Source: a virus (taxonomy: Duplodnaviria; Heunggongvirae; Uroviricota; Caudoviricetes). From it: a stretch of 12,078 bases of DNA. This document shows positions 1-11,994 of this stretch, in pieces. Within the stretch, counting starts at the first letter, position 1, and every line of letters starts with the position of its first letter. The stretch lies in IMG/VR virus record IMGVR_UViG_2703718672_000013; one strand, 5' to 3'. The notes below the pieces were generated by a model. That model had not been told where the DNA came from. It did not search any database and saw nothing but the letters and a program-made list of their open reading frames with translations. The translations under genes were made by a program, and so were the position numbers.

Positions 1-2405
1 GCATCGTGCAGGGCGTTATGGCGTTCACCTTCGAATGGAATAGTCGTTCTTGCGTCGAAATCCATCACCAGTCCCAGAGCAACCATCGTTCTTACATCGC
101 GATCATTGGTGTAACGCCACGGGCAGGGGATCCCCTGCCGTTCATATGAACGGCGTAAAATCACGTTGTCGAAAGTTGCACCGTTACCCCAGACCTGAAC
201 AAAAAATTCACCGGAGTTTTCGTCGATAAATTCCCGGAATTGCAGCAGTGCATCATCCAACGTGATTTCATCGGTCAGAATGGAGGATTGTGCTTCGCGT
301 GACTGTTTCAGCCACCACTTAATGGTGTCCCGATCGATGACCCCACCTGCGGTTTCCAGATCGATAGTTTTGCTGAATTCTGGCCCCATCTCTCCGGTTG
401 CCGGATCAAAAAACTTACCGGCTATAGAGTTTATTGGCGCATCAGGATTTTTTCCCATTGTTTCAAGGTCAATCATCAGATGGTGCCACAACCTGCTGGT
501 GGATGAGATTTCATGATGACCGTTCACTTTAATTAAGGGATTTGCTGTTTCGCCAGTTTTATTATCGCTGGCGTGATACTGATCGCTGCCAGTGTTCTCC
601 TTGTGCAGATGTTCAGTGCCTTCCATTTCCTCCGGATCATTTTTCTGAGCTTCAGCCTGATTCTCTTCATCGAATGTTTCCAGGTAGGTTGCGTTCCCCA
701 TCACCGCACCACAGTCAGGACAGTTGCCGCCACCGGTCTGACCGCATGCGGTGCAAACTTTTTCCAGTTCCTGTTGCACTGCTGGTTCTGGTTGTTGTTC
801 TTCTGGCCCGTTTTGTTGCGTATCCGGGCTGTTTTGTTCCGCTTCTGGCTCATTTTGTTTCACGTTGGGCTGATTCTGGTCCTCAGCGTCGCGACTCTGG
901 ATCCCTTTCACCCATTTCGGATCATTCGGGTCGCTAATCCCTTCAACAAATTCACCACGTGATGCAGCAAGCAATTTATCGGCGTCAGGCTGGCTGATAT
1001 TGGCTGCCTGCATAATTTTGTTTACTTCGTCAGCGGTAACTTTTACCGGCTCTGATTGTTCGGAATCTTCAGCGGTATCCACATTTTGCGGTAAGCCCGT
1101 GTATGTGCCATTTTTTCGGGCAAAATATTCTTCTTTTGAGATTTCGGTACCGCCGGCAGCCAGCGCCTTGTCCAGACCAGAAAGTTTGTTTGCCCTGCCG
1201 TATTTTTCCCCGCCCTTATCGGTAAAGACGAAATAAAATGGTCCTTCACGCTCTACAGATGGTTCAGCTTCCACCAGGATTTCATTTTTTTGAGTATCGG
1301 ATTCTGCCGTCTCCACTGGAGCAGTTTGTGCTGCTGACGGCTGGAGAGCATCAGTAGAGCTCTGGTCTGTTTCTTCATGTTCAAACACGCCCTTTGTCGT
1401 CAGGTATTCACTGATATATTTGTTCAGTGCAACGGGATCTTTGTGAATATCGATCGGACGTTCGCGAACAAGGCCAAAAATAGTCTGACGGTCATAGCCA
1501 AGTGCTTCGGGCTGTTTGCGCATTGATGCTGAGATACGCTTCCAGTCTTCGCGATCCTTGTCGATAACCTCATTTGTCGCCCAGCGATGGATGGTACCGT
1601 CAATGTTTCCTGCATCCACATCACCGGGCCAGAGGGCGCAGGCCAGTTCATTGTCGAGTGTTTTCCATGTCTGTTTGTATTCGCGGCGAATGGCAACAGT
1701 GACAGCCCCGGTTTTTTCAGCAGCGTTTTCAGTGTTCTGTTGGTTGACTCTGGCGCGGGTGAGATCAACAACAGACGTGTATTTTCCGGTTTCCTTGCGT
1801 TCACCTTCGCGACGTTTTTTCCAGATGCGCATCTCTGCCTGAATTTCAGGCCATTTAGCGCCAGGCTCACATTTATGCTTAACCCACCCGATGGCATGCA
1901 GTTTAAGTTCAGGATACATGGCGTTAACTTCTGGCATTTTCATCAACGCTTCAACGATATGTCCGCCGAATGTTGCCATGTCTTCCTGTAGTAATTCCTG
2001 TGCGCTAATCACCATATCAACGGTGATGTTTTCGCATGTGTCGAATTTAACCAGGACTGCGTTCTGTACTTCAGGGGACAGCTTGTCAAAATTGACGTTC
2101 ATCGGATCGGATTCTGGTTCGACCGGTACAAAGGAAGCTGACTCCTCATCCCAGCGGTTTTCCTGCATATATTCGGTATCCCAGGAATCGAGGGCAGGGC
2201 GGGGTATGCCGGGTTTATCCTCGCAGACAATAAATTTATAAGCGCAGTCCTGAGCTGCCGGGAATTGCTCCAGAAATTGCCAGTGAAATTTTGCGCGTGC
2301 GCGACGCTCATCACCGGCTTCAATGGCAGTGGCCACCGCAACAGCGCTATCTTCTTTTATGGCCTGTTCGTCAGGAATAGCAGCGCAAATAAAGATTTTA
2401 CTCAT
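1..2405 (-). CDS. RecE-like exonuclease, partial (C-terminus beyond window start); RecE-like N-terminal/middle region with C-x2-C...C-x2-C zinc ribbon, followed by a DnaQ-like DEDDh 3'-5' exonuclease domain
   Basis: Own reverse-strand translation from ATG at 2405 (MSKIFICAAIPDEQ...) is open to position 1; the six-frame track omits it because there is no in-window stop. Contains KVCTACGQTGGGNCPDCGAVMG, which I recall from E. coli RecE, then MIDLETMG (Exo I D-x-E), FDNVIL (Exo II) and HNALHDA (Exo III H-x4-D). GAGG Shine-Dalgarno about 10 nt upstream. Confidence 0.72.
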   Translation of the reverse strand, partial: MSKIFICAAIPDEQAIKEDSAVAVATAIEAGDERRARAKFHWQFLEQFPAAQDCAYKFIVCEDKPGIPRPALDSWDTEYMQENRWDEESASFVPVEPESDPMNVNFDKLSPEVQNAVLVKFDTCENITVDMVISAQELLQEDMATFGGHIVEALMKMPEVNAMYPELKLHAIGWVKHKCEPGAKWPEIQAEMRIWKKRREGERKETGKYTSVVDLTRARVNQQNTENAAEKTGAVTVAIRREYKQTWKTLDNELACALWPGDVDAGNIDGTIHRWATNEVIDKDREDWKRISASMRKQPEALGYDRQTIFGLVRERPIDIHKDPVALNKYISEYLTTKGVFEHEETDQSSTDALQPSAAQTAPVETAESDTQKNEILVEAEPSVEREGPFYFVFTDKGGEKYGRANKLSGLDKALAAGGTEISKEEYFARKNGTYTGLPQNVDTAEDSEQSEPVKVTADEVNKIMQAANISQPDADKLLAASRGEFVEGISDPNDPKWVKGIQSRDAEDQNQPNVKQNEPEAEQNSPDTQQNGPEEQQPEPAVQQELEKVCTACGQTGGGNCPDCGAVMGNATYLETFDEENQAEAQKNDPEEMEGTEHLHKENTGSDQYHASDNKTGETANPLIKVNGHHEISSTSRLWHHLMIDLETMGKNPDAPINSIAGKFFDPATGEMGPEFSKTIDLETAGGVIDRDTIKWWLKQSREAQSSILTDEITLDDALLQFREFIDENSGEFFVQVWGNGATFDNVILRRSYERQGIPCPWRYTNDRDVRTMVALGLVMDFDARTTIPFEGERHNALHD

Positions 2406-2498
2406 TGTGTTTTAACCTCATTACAGATTTAAGGGTGAACAAATCCCTGCCATTGCTGGCATATAAAAATGAAACCGGATATTAATTACGGTGCTGTT

Positions 2499-2690
2499 TT
2501 AAAGTCCTGCCGGTATTTCGTTATTATTAGTGTGAGTAGTTTTATCTACCGGATAACAGTTACCGGGAATTTTTTGTTCTGCTGCTGCAGCCATGCATTC
2601 TTTCATTGAACCGTATAAGCCAGTCACCAGCTCAAGAGATTCGCCGGAAACAAGATAAACTGTCAGAACGAGTGCAAATGTTGTATTCAT
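2499..2690 (-). CDS. YdfD-like small protein (63 aa) with hydrophobic N-terminal segment; Qin-prophage YdfD family, reported lysis-inducing
   Basis: ATG at 2690 overlaps the upstream TGA (ATGA coupling); AAGGA Shine-Dalgarno; N-terminus MNTTFALVLTVYLVSGESL is signal/TM-like; sits directly after the DicB-like gene as ydfD does in Qin. Confidence 0.6.
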   Translation of the reverse strand: MNTTFALVLTVYLVSGESLELVTGLYGSMKECMAAAAEQKIPGNCYPVDKTTHTNNNEIPAGL

Positions 2691-2875
2691 TGTTTATATC
2701 CTTTTTGCAGCAGGTCCAGACGAGCCAGCATTGAAGGAATGCATACTTCATTTAACAGGTCCTGCTCGAGTTTTCTCTGCTTAATGGCGTCTTCAATAAA
2801 TGTTTTGTCTCCAGTGATAACGCCAATTTCGAAACGAAGTTCAGACGTGCTGGCATTACATGATAACTTTTCCAT
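2687..2875 (-). CDS. dicB: DicB-like cell division inhibitor (62 aa)
   Basis: Internal ATG at 2875 with GAGGA 7 nt upstream (the track ORF begins at an upstream TTG). Product MEKLSCNASTSELRFEIGVITGDKTFIEDAIKQRKLEQDLLNEVCIPSMLARLDLLQKGYKQ matches remembered E. coli DicB (62 aa; EIGV, EDAI-KRK, SMLARL motifs). About 180 nt downstream of the DicF-like element. Confidence 0.75.
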   Translation of the reverse strand: MEKLSCNASTSELRFEIGVITGDKTFIEDAIKQRKLEQDLLNEVCIPSMLARLDLLQKGYKQ

Positions 2876-3054
2876 TATCGCGTCCTCAACAATGAATTTT
2901 GTGATGCGGTGCCTGGTGCCTCCAGGTGACGTTAACCAGTTAACAATTAACGCCGGATACAGAGCATTCTCGTTACTCAGCAAATGACCGCTTTACCGAT
3001 TTAACTGTTCCGCGTGCGCTGAGCCGCATTCACCGCATCACAAAATTCACTTTT

Positions 3055-3113
3055 AAAAAAGGGCGGCAGAGCAGTTACGGAGTAAAACTGATACCGCCAA
3101 ATGTCACCAGAAT
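3055..3113 (-). ncRNA. dicF: DicF-like small RNA (ftsZ-targeting sRNA family of Qin/Rac-type prophages)
   Basis: Minus-strand sequence ATTCTGGTGACATTTGGCGGTATCAGTTTTACTCCGTAACTGCTCTGCCGCCCTTTTTT is near-identical to my recollection of E. coli DicF, ending in a U-run; located immediately upstream of the DicB-like gene in the same orientation. Confidence 0.7.
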
Positions 3114-3448
3114 ATTGATAACAGAGGGCGTTGCAGCGGGGTTGTCACTTAAGCGTATGGTCAACCTGACAACCCGGTGTCCTCAACGGGGAAAGAATAA
3201 CCCCGCCATACTTACCGCCGCGCCATTTCGCGGATTGCCACAACCGGAAGCGCACGGTCGAATTAAATTTAACGACGGCTCTAAGGGAGAAGGACTTCGC
3301 CGTGCACTTTCGTGTTATGCCCTGACTTTTCAGGGATATATCCTTTCAGTAAACTGTCAGTGCCGGATTCTTATCTGTGTCCGGCGCACGACCACACGTA
3401 GCAGCGTGTTGGTCTCCATTTTTAATTCAGCCCTTAATGGAGGATAAA

Positions 3449-3634
3449 ATGCCAAACAAACCATGCCCTGCCTGTAACGCTCTTTCTGGCTTTTTAGAGA
3501 AGGGCGGTTATTACATTTTTAACTGTCCAGAACATGTTGAATTTCATATATCAAAACTTGACAGTATCATTACAAAGCCAAATCAGTATCAGTCTGATTT
3601 ACTGAATAAAGAGTTAAACGCCGCCCGAGATTAA
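3449..3634 (+). CDS. Small hypothetical protein (61 aa) with zinc-ribbon-like cysteines (C-P-A-C ... N-C-P-E-H), encoded antisense to the leftward operon
   Basis: ATG at 3449 preceded by GGAGGA (3439-3444) at 5-nt spacing; the track ORF 3377..3634 contains this start internally. No homolog recognised. Confidence 0.35.
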   Translation: MPNKPCPACNALSGFLEKGGYYIFNCPEHVEFHISKLDSIITKPNQYQSDLLNKELNAARD

Positions 3635-3671
3635 GGGCGTAGTGGCCCATTAAAAATATTGCAAAGACCAA

Positions 3672-4210
3672 CTATTGTTGAACTGGATTAAACCAGTAAT
3701 TCTCTATTGCTCTTATTGTTACCATCGGATGATTGCCGGGGGTTATTTTAAGTTCGGGAGGAAAAGGCTCTCCATCAGCAGCCATCATTGAGTATGTGAA
3801 ATCCGCCGACGCAGTCCCTTTCATGATAATTCCGAATTTTTCAAGTAATGAGAGCAGTTCCGGTAATCCTGTGTCATCTGAATAACTTTCCTCATAGAAA
3901 GAAGCGATTGCCGCAGGAGATGACAGTTCTCGCTCTGCAATTTTTTTGTAGTTTTCCAGAATTCTTTTTTTGAATACTTTTCCTCGACATGAAAACCCAT
4001 CACCGAGGCAATCCGCTTTGCAGTTTCTTCAGTATTCTGGTTGTTTGTTACCGAAACAGAGTACAATCCGGTAAACGCATCGCGCACATTACGAGCCATA
4101 TTATCAATGTATTTCTTCGTTGCAGATTCTAATTCAACTTCGTTCAGACGTTGGTGAAGTGCATGTGCTGCAATTTCCTGGATTTCTTTTAGTAAATCTT
4201 TAAATTCCAT
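3672..4210 (-). pseudogene. Hypothetical leftward-operon gene disrupted by a frameshift in an A7 homopolymer (T-run 3965-3971 on plus strand); N-terminal about 80 codons in one frame, about 95 further codons in the -1 frame
   Basis: Track ORF 3821..4210 turns low-complexity after ...MGFHVEEKYS; the -1 frame from the A-run gives a protein-like continuation (KKRILENYKKIAERELSSPAAIASFYEESYSDDTGLPELLSLLEKFGII...NYWFNPVQQ) to a TAG at 3672. ATG at 4210 follows the upstream gene stop by 12 nt. Confidence 0.5.
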
Positions 4211-4784: not shown

Positions 4785-5072
4785 TCAGATAGAGAAGGGA
4801 AATTGTCGCCGAGAATGTGTCACGCTTACAATCTCAATGCTTGAAGCAGCTACTCTGTACAGGATTATGTAGTTAGGGTGGGTCACGATCTCTCTCAATC
4901 CAGAAACCCGTTCGCTTGGTGGATATAAGTACGGATGCTCAGATAGAGGTAATACCGATGTTTCAATGCGTATTTTTAGTCTACGTGCTGCCGGTGGGTT
5001 CTCCTTGGCGATGTAAGTTATGATCTGGCGCAAATCATCGCGAGCAGACGGTAGCCATAAAATGGGTAACAT
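4785..5072 (-). CDS. parE: ParE/RelE-superfamily type II toxin (95 aa)
   Basis: ParE-like pattern W..SA..DL..I..YIA..NP.AA......E....L...P..G........LRE......YI.LYRV....IEIV.V.H.RR; start overlaps the upstream stop (TAATG). Confidence 0.78.
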   Translation of the reverse strand: MLPILWLPSARDDLRQIITYIAKENPPAARRLKIRIETSVLPLSEHPYLYPPSERVSGLREIVTHPNYIILYRVAASSIEIVSVTHSRRQFPFSI

Positions 5073-5263
5073 TACTCGCTCTTGTTAGTTACAGCAATTT
5101 GAGCAATAAGATTTTCCATTTCAGCCATTACCTCGTCATGTGGAATTGCGGGGCGAGTGTCTGCAAGGCTTGACGTTACTTTAGTGCGCAACCATTCGTT
5201 GTAACTGTTTTCTTGTTCGGTAGTTTCGAATTCTGAAACTATCGGAGAAAGGGCTGTACCCAT
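5072..5263 (-). CDS. Small antitoxin (63 aa), PaaA-like partner of the ParE-family toxin
   Basis: GAGGAG Shine-Dalgarno 7 nt upstream of ATG at 5263; 1-nt stop/start overlap with the toxin; 63 aa, acidic; resembles my recollection of PaaA2 from E. coli O157 three-component paaR-paaA-parE systems. Confidence 0.68.
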   Translation of the reverse strand: MGTALSPIVSEFETTEQENSYNEWLRTKVTSSLADTRPAIPHDEVMAEMENLIAQIAVTNKSE

Positions 5264-9088: not shown

Positions 9089-9583
9089 ATGGAAACCGTA
9101 TCTGACGCACTGAAAGCACTGAAAAAAGCCTCTTCACATGTGGTGGCAGCTCGCCTTGGAATCAGTCGTGAAGAGGCTGTCAACGAGCTGTGGGAACTCA
9201 AAATAAATGGCGTCGTTGATAAAACTGGTCACACCTGGTTTCTGGCTGGCGAAGGTGAATCCCGGGTAACCGAAGAGCGGCCAGTAAAATCTGAAGCACA
9301 GGATATGCTGACCGGGGAGGTCGAACAAAAAGTTACCGCAGACATGATGATTGAGTTTATCGGTCAGGATGGGGCTAAAACGTGTGAGGAACTGGCGGGT
9401 AAGTTCGGTGTCAGTACTCGCAAGGTTGCTTCCACGCTGGCGGTGGTAACCGCAACGGGGCGGCTGGCACGCGTTAATCAGAACGGTAAATTTCGTTACT
9501 GCATGCCGGGCGATAATTTACCAGCAGAGCCGAAAGCCGCGCTGGTAACGGAAAGTGATGGTAAGGCCTTTCCTCAGCCAGCA
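9089..9583 (+). CDS. Hypothetical prophage protein with two winged-helix-like repeats, 3' end lost in the N-gap
   Basis: ATG at 9089 with GGAGG upstream; internal duplication (AARLGISREEAVNELWELKINGVVDKTGHTWFL / ELAGKFGVSTRKVASTLAVVTATGRLARVNQNGKFRYCM); ORF runs into the N run. Confidence 0.5.
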
Positions 9584-9653
9584 NNNNNNNNNNNNNNNNN
9601 NNNNNNNNNNNNNNNNNNNNNNNNNNNNNNNNNNNNNNNNNNNNNNNNNNNNN
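9584..9653. other. Assembly gap (70 N)
   Basis: Run of n characters. Confidence 0.99.
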
Positions 9654-9695
9654 TCCCGCCGTGTTGTATCGGAAAAGTGATTGCCGGAGGCGCTT

Positions 9696-10109
9696 ATGGC
9701 AAAAGTATTTACACAGGAAGAGCGGGAAAAAATTAAAGGGCAGGTTGTTGAGCTAGTACGCCGGAGTGGGCGCGAGACGTTACGGCAACTGGAAGCCAAG
9801 ACAGGTGCGACAAGATATCTGATGAGCGTTCTTGCCAGAGAGCTGGTTGCCAGTGGCGATGTATACAACTCTGGTTACGGGTTATTCCCATCTGAACAGG
9901 CTCGTAAGGACTGGCAAAACGCCCGCAAAAAACTATCGAGGGCAAAACTGAAGAAACCGGTTGTGGTTGATCCTGACCTTATCTGGTCATTACCAGACGG
10001 AGAAATACGCCGCTATGACAGGCAATTGAACATAATTTGTAGTGAGTGCCGTAACAGTGAAGTGATGCAGCGAGTTTTGATATTTTACACAGGAGTAATG
10101 ATGGAATAG
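9696..10109 (+). CDS. Hypothetical protein (137 aa)
   Basis: ATG at 9696 with GGAGG 5 nt upstream; protein-like composition; possibly a fragment of a longer ORF continuing from before the gap. Confidence 0.45.
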   Translation: MAKVFTQEEREKIKGQVVELVRRSGRETLRQLEAKTGATRYLMSVLARELVASGDVYNSGYGLFPSEQARKDWQNARKKLSRAKLKKPVVVDPDLIWSLPDGEIRRYDRQLNIICSECRNSEVMQRVLIFYTGVMME

Positions 10110-11234: not shown

Positions 11235-11781
11235 GCGTTCTCCCCATGAGCATTAAAGGATGCTTAAGATATGCTATGTCACTGATAAAAAATTTGTTGT
11301 GTGTGTTTAGTTATTTTATCTACCTCCATTATGATTTAAGACTGATATATGTTATCAGCAAAGGTACATCGTTATTATTTTACCTGTCAATACATTTGAT
11401 ATTGATTATCGTTTACATCGCTTGCTTAGGAAATTGAAGGCAGGTAACTATCATGTCAATGAACTAACCCACAGTCTAACGTACTTCTTTCCCCAATCAC
11501 CAACAACCAAATTCCTGTTATCACCACTGGGATTTTGGCGCAACTTCATGGTGCAGAGGTAAATAGCATCAAGCAAAATCTCTTTTTCCGTTGTTGTCCT
11601 TATGGGACGTCTGTCTTTCTGACCGATTTCATATTGGCGAGGTAATGGGAAGTTAAGTAGAATAGCTGCGGGTGCTTGAGGCTATCTGCCTCGGGCATGA
11701 ACACCAACGGCAGATAGAGAAAAGCCCCAGTTAACATTACGCGTCCTGCAAGACGCCTAACATTAATCTGAGGCTCAATCT

Positions 11782-11994
11782 ATGAACGGCAAATCTAGGT
11801 TAGCCTCTTACGTGCCGAAAGGCAAGGAGAAGCAGGCTATGAAGCAGCAAAAGGCGATGTTAATCGCCCTGATCGTCATCTGTTTAACCGTCATAGTGAC
11901 GGCACTGGTAACGAGGAAAGACCTCTGCGAGGTACGAGTCCGAACCGGCCAGACGGAGGTCGCTGTCTTCACAGCTTACGAACCTGAGGAGTAA
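11782..11994 (+). CDS. mok-like overlapping reading frame of a hok/sok-type type I toxin locus
   Basis: 70-aa ORF that contains the hok-like frame, the arrangement of mok/hok; GAGG upstream of ATG 11782. Confidence 0.5.
   Translation: MNGKSRLASYVPKGKEKQAMKQQKAMLIALIVICLTVIVTALVTRKDLCEVRVRTGQTEVAVFTAYEPEE
11839..11994 (+). CDS. hok: Hok/Gef-family type I toxin (51 aa membrane peptide)
   Basis: MKQQKAMLIALIVICLTVIVTALVTRKDLCEVRVRTGQTEVAVFTAYEPEE matches the Hok family signature (LTRKSLCEIR...EVAAF.AYE) as I recall it; a 9-bp hairpin lies in the leader (11682-11717). Confidence 0.78.
   Translation: MKQQKAMLIALIVICLTVIVTALVTRKDLCEVRVRTGQTEVAVFTAYEPEE

Follow-up and report, generated by a model that had tools for sequence, protein, structure and literature searches.

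An intact ydfE-type gene of lambdoid prophages joins a RecE-type scaffold to a predicted DEDDh 3'-5' exonuclease domain

The first 2405 positions of the viral record IMGVR_UViG_2703718672_000013 (12,078 nucleotides, nt; "the window" below means this whole stretch of DNA) hold most of a single minus-strand gene, which we identify here as the intact counterpart of ydfE, known from Escherichia coli K-12 as a prophage pseudogene. Its ATG lies at 2405-2403 and the frame stays open through window position 1, giving 801 codons in view; no long open reading frame (ORF) was seen on the plus strand of positions 1-2405. Many E. coli O157:H7 chromosomes carry the same stretch at 100% identity. In one such identical locus (strain PV15-279) the full-length gene has 823 codons, so the initial annotation was right that the gene runs on beyond the window, yet it does so by 22 codons only. 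The PV15-279 copy is annotated as 'exonuclease' (WP_000034474.1) and sits in a lambdoid prophage integrated beside yccA, which we take to be the Sp4/CP-933M position. There, a DUF4224 excisionase-like gene comes next, and a tyrosine integrase gene after it. A scan of positions 1-4000 for promoters and terminators gave counts not above those of shuffled sequence, as did the 93-nt gap to the upstream gene ydfD, and is uninformative about expression.

The full-length protein has a single Pfam match, to PF16473 ('3'-5' exoribonuclease Rv2179c-like', a DEDDh family), which spans amino acids (aa) 641-813 and the entire profile (positions 1-177 of 177) at E = 3.6e-62 and 209.6 bits (cutoff 27); the in-window product alone still matches at E = 5e-55. 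In an alignment with DexA of phage T4 and three standalone phage homologs, residues D646, E648, D746, H796 and D801 fall onto DexA D7, E9, D119, H186 and D191. This bears out the initial annotation, which had read a C-terminal DEDDh domain of the DnaQ/RNase T type with Exo I, II and III motifs. The catalytic pentad is intact, and 3'-5' exonuclease activity is predicted. Sequence searches of the PDB returned T4 DexA (8KEL) as the sole significant relative, at E = 1e-6 with the single sequence and E = 1e-15 with a four-sequence profile; the profile search, followed up to E = 1, found no other significant solved relative. By tblastn, the domain has matches in 1357 phage records.

The remainder of the protein is related to RecE in part. 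BLASTP against K-12 RecE (MG1655) aligned aa 262-625 with RecE 278-591 only (E = 4e-59, with about 80% identity over the last 150 residues); it found no similarity before aa 262 and left the small module at aa 387-431 unaligned. Homology to recE at the DNA level is confined to aa 475-625, at 76% identity. The NCBIfam equivalog model for RecE, NF007259, scored 260.1 bits against a cutoff of 1269, its best stretch being model positions 446-602. In Pfam scans, K-12 RecE showed PF06630 at 2-178, the PDDEXK-like PF12684 at 615-850 and no DEDD match, and the window protein matched neither PF06630 nor PF12684. Hence, of the RecE-like N-terminal and middle regions that had been proposed, the middle with its zinc ribbon stands (aa 262-625), whereas aa 1-260 do not resemble RecE. 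The PD-(D/E)xK end ascribed to E. coli RecE is confirmed by the PF12684 match. Because the middle is homologous to RecE, the C-terminus is a DEDDh domain and RecE itself ends in a PD-(D/E)xK domain, the protein is indeed domain-swapped with respect to RecE; RecE does not have the same C-terminal fold, nor did the DEDD match fail to appear. To judge by these profile and alignment results, the motifs and the swap are real and lie far beyond chance. The stretch that links scaffold and nuclease is long, acidic and, by prediction, largely disordered; in the Escherichia lineage it includes the zinc ribbon. The layout of the protein and the features next to the gene are listed in Table 1.

Table 1. 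Layout of the ydfE-type gene and its product, with upstream features; positions are those of the window (pLDDT, predicted local distance difference test; dN/dS, ratio of nonsynonymous to synonymous substitution rates; AF2, AlphaFold2)
Feature	Position	Strand	Basis or remark
Partial coding sequence, codons 1-801 of 823	1..2405	-	Intact ydfE-type gene, WP_000034474.1; last 22 codons and stop beyond position 1
GAGG, Shine-Dalgarno-like motif, 10 nt upstream of ATG	2416..2419	-	Sequence read
N-terminal module 1, aa 1-96, alpha/beta, ferredoxin-like topology; part of the 'type A' N-terminus replacing RecE PF06630	2118..2405	-	
N-terminal module 2, aa 101-209, helical	1779..2105	-	AF2 pLDDT about 70-82; dN/dS 0.08-0.09
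Helical core domain, aa 241-339, family-wide, homologous to RecE aa 257-354	1389..1685	-	AF2 pLDDT 72-85; dN/dS 0.08
Beta-hairpin plus helix module, aa 387-431 (GPFYFVF...)	1113..1247	-	AF2; dN/dS 0.09
Acidic Q/N/P-rich linker, aa 475-625	531..983	-	DNA homology to Rac recE 76%; dN/dS about 0.3
CxxC-x7-CxxC zinc-ribbon motif CTACGQTGGGNCPDCG, aa 551-566	708..755	-	
Fusion junction, aa 626-640	486..530	-	RecE homology stops at aa 625; Met1 of standalone DEDDh proteins aligns with aa 640
DEDDh 3'-5' exonuclease domain, DexA/Rv2179c-like, aa 641-801 in view (ends at aa 813)	1..485	-	PF16473; dN/dS 0.10
Exo I motif, D646-x-E648	462..470	-	Alignment with T4 DexA
Exo II motif, WGNGATFDN with D746	165..191	-	Alignment with T4 DexA and standalone homologs
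Exo III motif, H796-NALH-D801	3..20	-	Alignment with T4 DexA
ydfD (DUF1482), upstream gene, same operon context	2499..2690	-	
dicB, cell-division inhibitor, upstream gene, same operon context	2687..2875	-	
DicF small RNA, same operon context	3061..3112	-	Rfam RF00039, 76.9 bits

In the K-12 Qin prophage, the genes run dicF-dicB-ydfD-ydfE-(IS2)-intQ. Since the window gene stands in the same gene order and the truncated K-12 copy (Qin pseudogene b1577, L012:7079-7999) shares 89% identity with aa 1-255 of its product, we identify it on both counts as the intact form of ydfE. The gene is common: megablast with the 2405-nt stretch matched, at a coverage of at least 80%, some two in three of the complete E. 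coli genomes (3489 of 5426), at a median of two places per genome and a maximum of ten. The order exo-xis-int with a fused gene (813-823 aa) recurs in the isolated phages Tritos, HannyBb and vB_EcoS-689R5. The window, Tritos and HannyBb alleles all have 823 codons, without indels, at 85-87% nucleotide identity. Compared with the latter two, dN/dS is 0.06-0.09 in the four AF2-folded N-terminal modules (aa 1-96, 101-209, 241-339 and 387-431), 0.10 in the DEDDh domain, about 0.3 in the zinc-ribbon linker and 0.55-0.92 in segments predicted to be disordered. Because dN/dS is low in the folded modules as well as in the DEDDh domain, these parts are under purifying selection, and the protein is maintained as a multi-module whole rather than as a decaying fusion.

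This selection analysis contradicts the notion that the gene is a relic, an accidental deletion fusion in defective prophages without function, to which the state of some copies might otherwise point: the K-12 copy is a truncated pseudogene, and in O157 strain FDAARGOS_293 (NZ_CP022050.2, 501064-504781) one gene copy is split by an IS3-family element. With alleles of identical length, dN/dS of 0.06-0.10 in the folded modules, ten 50%-identity clusters that have the fused architecture, and copies of the gene in isolated, propagating phages, we regard decay as very improbable. At the site of the split copy in FDAARGOS_293, an 'AL1L pseudoknot' is annotated.

A search of a one-genome-per-species collection with the DEDDh alignment retrieved 80 loci. 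Fifteen of them encode scaffold-containing fused proteins of 676-826 aa and come from Enterobacteriaceae (Escherichia, Citrobacter, Klebsiella, Enterobacter, Pluralibacter and Atlantibacter), except for one metagenome-assembled genome (MAG) labelled Veillonella, a locus that is probably mis-binned. About 55 encode standalone proteins of roughly 170-300 aa, over a much wider range of taxa. Contigs labelled as a Veillonella MAG, a Geobacteraceae MAG, an Actinomycetes MAG, Streptomyces and Chryseobacterium were seen to carry DEDDh genes of the enterobacterial prophage type at 55-84% identity, probably by contamination or mis-binning. Where enough downstream DNA was available, an integrase homolog starts 36-650 nt past the stop codon in all 14 fused loci and is likewise placed in 17 of 52 standalone loci.

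These neighbourhoods bear on a further claim of the initial annotation, that a recT/bet-like partner lay out of view. A classical two-component recombinase with recT or bet just outside the window would have fitted the RecE-like middle region and the Rac prophage, in which recT follows recE (recE-recT-ralR-rcbA-xisR-intR). Synteny contradicts it: only 22 codons of the gene lie outside the window, the excisionase-like and integrase genes come after it, and the 14 fused loci elsewhere are built alike. No RecT-like or Rad52-like ORF was found within 6 kb at the 70 loci examined, a screen that did not take in Erf, Red-beta or Sak4, and no annealase is listed in the full annotation of HannyBb. Besides, 3'-5' polarity would not yield the 3' tails that an annealase needs. 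We therefore give a hidden recT/bet partner next to no credence.

The scaffold has a wider family. A homolog search with aa 1-625 was swamped by near-identical E. coli proteins, and an exhaustive HMMER search with aa 1-460 against 1.84 billion 50%-identity representatives was used instead, which yielded 188 clusters. Among the 64 members of at least 480 aa, a PF06630 N-terminus was found in 23, a PDDEXK domain in 16, an Rv2179c-like domain in ten and a RecT domain in one, and the core helical domain of about 100 residues was recovered in about 60. Two alternative N-termini exist, type A (that of the window protein) and the PF06630 type, and mapping protein by protein found both together with both nuclease types. 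The 813-aa protein of vB_EcoS-689R5, for instance, combines a K-12 RecE-like N-terminal region (from RecE residue 50) and a RecE middle with a DEDDh domain 88% identical to that of the window protein. Proteins of the type of gp07 from Pectobacterium phage ZF40 carry yet another C-terminal domain, whose similarity to Rad52/Mgm101 is at the level of the fold only and amid many non-specific coiled-coil matches; a PDB sequence-profile search with it found nothing. A structural search with the N-terminal scaffold gave no informative match.

The RecE-type scaffold is thus modular and carries a PD-(D/E)xK exonuclease, a DEDDh exonuclease or a Rad52/Mgm101-like annealase. Because these cargoes are a 5'-3' exonuclease, a 3'-5' exonuclease and an annealase, the scaffold is tied to DNA recombination. 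The zinc ribbon was considered as a family-defining feature and rejected, as only 3 of the 68 family sequences that were screened for it have it, each of them from the Escherichia lineage. Since this Escherichia-lineage motif sits in the sole stretch with DNA-level identity to recE, a recent exchange of the linker between prophages is suggested. As to the origin of the fusion, a simple possibility is that the 5' two-thirds of a recE-type gene were joined by recombination to a standalone DEDDh gene that already lay beside xis-int, the PD-(D/E)xK domain and recT being lost. In a neighbour-joining tree of the DEDDh domains, fused and standalone forms interleave, but with too few standalone sequences and without support values the tree has no power to count fusion events.

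What, then, might the protein do? Between recombination and defence or anti-defence, both raised in the initial annotation, we infer a role from the features described so far. With confidence that is about evenly divided, we propose that intact ydfE encodes a scaffold-targeted 3'-5' exonuclease of DNA ends that works without an annealase partner. As the final gene of the dicF-dicB-ydfD early-left operon in lambdoid prophages of the Qin/Sp4 type, immediately upstream of xis-int, it would be expressed once induction or infection lifts the repression of this operon, a timing suggested by its position in the operon. The four folded N-terminal modules of the scaffold would then bring the nuclease to the target that the N-terminal region of RecE recognises, probably DNA ends or intermediates of recombination or replication. 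There, the linker would tether the catalytically intact DEDDh domain in the place of the PD-(D/E)xK 5'-3' exonuclease of RecE, and the domain would degrade DNA in the 3'-to-5' direction, removing 3' tails as T4 DexA does, so that a single polypeptide would act without a dedicated annealase. DNA is the likely substrate because of the relationship to DexA, the 3'-5' polarity is expected because of the DEDDh fold, and the scaffold may well serve targeting.

Several points weigh against this proposal. A literature search returned no biochemical or genetic data on the window protein or its fused homologs, and the annealase screen described above omitted Erf, Red-beta and Sak4. The Pfam family is named after the RNase Rv2179c, which makes an RNA substrate possible. 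A 3'-5' exonuclease destroys the very 3' tails that annealases and RecA use, and a role in favour of recombination is therefore not obvious. Finally, DEDDh exonucleases of prophages and plasmids can be anti-phage defences (PMC12153337; PMC13344964).

The question of the substrate leads to a reading that we rate as quite improbable, namely a 3'-5' exoribonuclease like Rv2179c that trims or degrades phage or host transcripts, possibly those from the adjacent xis-int genes. The name of PF16473 and the NCBI label on many copies ('3'-5' exoribonuclease') favour it, as does the conserved position directly upstream of xis-int, which fused and many standalone forms share. On the other side stand the PDB searches, whose only significant relative is a DNase, and the alternative cargoes of the scaffold, which are DNA enzymes throughout (PD-(D/E)xK exonuclease, Rad52-like annealase, RecT).

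Were the gene instead an anti-phage defence of the prophage, its DEDDh domain would degrade invading nucleic acid, either in the manner of EcD/HREX on T4 DNA containing 5-hydroxymethylcytosine (5hmC) or in the manner of TONDOs on the 3' ends of RNA phages. EcD, a standalone E. coli DexA homolog ('HREX'), reportedly digests 5hmC DNA and in this way confers protection against T4 (PMC12153337). TONDOs are prophage-borne, ISG20-like DEDDh exonucleases, usually with an auxiliary domain, and protect against RNA phages (PMC13344964). Both precedents lend support to a defence role, and the window domain is 38-39% identical to our proxy for EcD, a 189-aa E. coli protein that is matched by the published forward primer and has A78 as the EcD paper describes. 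In addition, expression of DicB, whose gene lies two places upstream within the operon, is reported to confer protection against some phages. Yet three features diagnostic of HREX are absent from the window protein: the equivalent of the DexA tetramer residue D90, replaced by A78 in the EcD-like protein, is kept (D718), that of W152 is T766, and that of D169 is a hydrophobic residue (V780 or L by alignment, the loop alignment being uncertain there). The W152 position is, moreover, variable among fused homologs. The location of the gene at the distal end of a repressor-controlled early-left operon, with promoter signal not above chance, and its carriage by isolated, propagating phages speak against defence, as do the other cargoes of the scaffold, which are recombination enzymes. 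The TONDO study, for its part, took its candidates from proteins below 500 aa of the ISG20-like clade (PMC13344964). On balance, we consider a defence function unlikely, although the EcD and TONDO papers make it the chief rival to our proposal.

As improbable as an exoribonuclease, in our estimate, is a nuclease of anti-defence or host takeover, one that would degrade an immune nucleic acid of the host, such as signalling oligonucleotides or retron multicopy single-stranded DNA, or scavenge host DNA like T4 DexA. The 3'-5' DNA exonuclease DexA takes part both in the scavenging of host DNA and, during intron homing, in the repair of double-strand breaks (PMC12153337); the former role and the early-operon location in temperate phages are compatible with such a function, but simple scavenging leaves unexplained the large conserved scaffold that is common to recombination proteins.

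The proposal of a scaffold-targeted DNA-end exonuclease invites a broader, doubtful generalisation. A 2023 review (PMC11611040) gives the function of RecE's N-terminal two-thirds as unknown. Possibly, this region is a general delivery module that temperate phages of enterobacteria mount interchangeably on RecT, on a Rad52-like annealase or on an exonuclease of either 5'-3' or 3'-5' polarity, the DEDDh version being an annealase-independent, single-polypeptide processor of DNA ends with a polarity opposite to that of every known phage recombination exonuclease. If so, this version might divert or stop host end-processing by blunting or trimming away 3' tails, or it might attack the DNA of rival phages.

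Both the sequence family and its string of domains are on record already, in PHROGs, Pfam and NCBI names. PHROG 2082 ('exonuclease', 823 aa) matches with 1688 bits, aa 1-801 mapping onto profile positions 1-801 of 823, and the string PF27430 + PF27432 + PF16473 is precomputed in a large protein collection under the names 'exonuclease' and '3'-5' exoribonuclease'. A literature search on Rv2179c, PF16473, RecE with DEDDh, and ydfE brought up no paper that describes or tests the fusion. The label 'exodeoxyribonuclease VIII' is still attached to the gene in some databases and phage records, although the gene lacks the RecE nuclease and a RecT partner, and the present analysis corrects that annotation. 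Besides, it makes the N-terminal region of RecE experimentally approachable, as one scaffold occurs with three or four DNA-end enzymes; because it does, a common target of the scaffold is presumed. If that target were found, it would bear on the improvement of linear-linear recombineering by full-length RecE and explain how lambdoid prophages without an annealase act at DNA ends.

Elsewhere in the window, two minus-strand ORFs of 95 and 63 aa (4785-5263) correspond to genes that the identical O157 locus (L001:16784-17262) has annotated as a RelE/ParE toxin and a RelB antitoxin, and a sok antitoxin RNA of a hok/sok-type locus was recognised on the plus strand at 11670-11844 (Rfam RF01794, 105.6 bits). 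Downstream of the replication genes, window positions ~9089-9736 are not colinear with PV15-279 (L001:21088-24737), in which ISEc8 lies inside a DUF977 gene and a DUF1627 ORF measures 256 aa as against 215 aa in the window. Because of this non-colinearity, the window is taken to come from an O157-like strain other than PV15-279.

Among known systems, the closest comparison is with K-12 RecE. The two proteins share a homologous core helical domain (aa 241-339 and RecE 257-354), a nearly identical acidic zinc-ribbon linker (aa 475-625 and RecE 455-591) and the same position in the lambdoid early-left operon. They differ in the nuclease, a DEDDh domain of opposite expected polarity here where RecE has PD-(D/E)xK, in the PF06630 N-terminus, which is absent here, and in recT, which lies directly downstream in Rac whereas none follows the window gene. 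K-12 YdfE matches in gene order (dicF-dicB-ydfD-ydfE), but IS2 cut it after aa 255, with loss of the core domain, linker and nuclease. The ZF40 gp07-type proteins, termed 'exodeoxyribonuclease VIII-like', agree with the window protein in the type-A N-terminus, the core domain and the operon position upstream of xis-int; their C-terminal cargo, in contrast, is a Rad52/Mgm101-like fold with a coiled coil and no nuclease, and a Sipho_Gp157 gene comes next. T4 DexA belongs to the same DEDDh subfamily, with the five catalytic residues in common. It is, however, only 27-29% identical, a standalone protein of 227 aa with extra loops, and its W152 and D169, which are reported to serve 5hmC recognition, are not conserved in the window protein. 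EcD has lost the D90 equivalent and kept those of W152 and residue 169 (as E169), and the window protein shows the reverse. The nearest non-fused relatives, at 50-57% identity, are the exonuclease genes of the lambdoid phages Eeyore (CDS0013) and Serratia OS31 (p03), which occupy the same slot as the window gene, immediately upstream of xis-int; like EcD, their products comprise about 190 aa and are without the scaffold.

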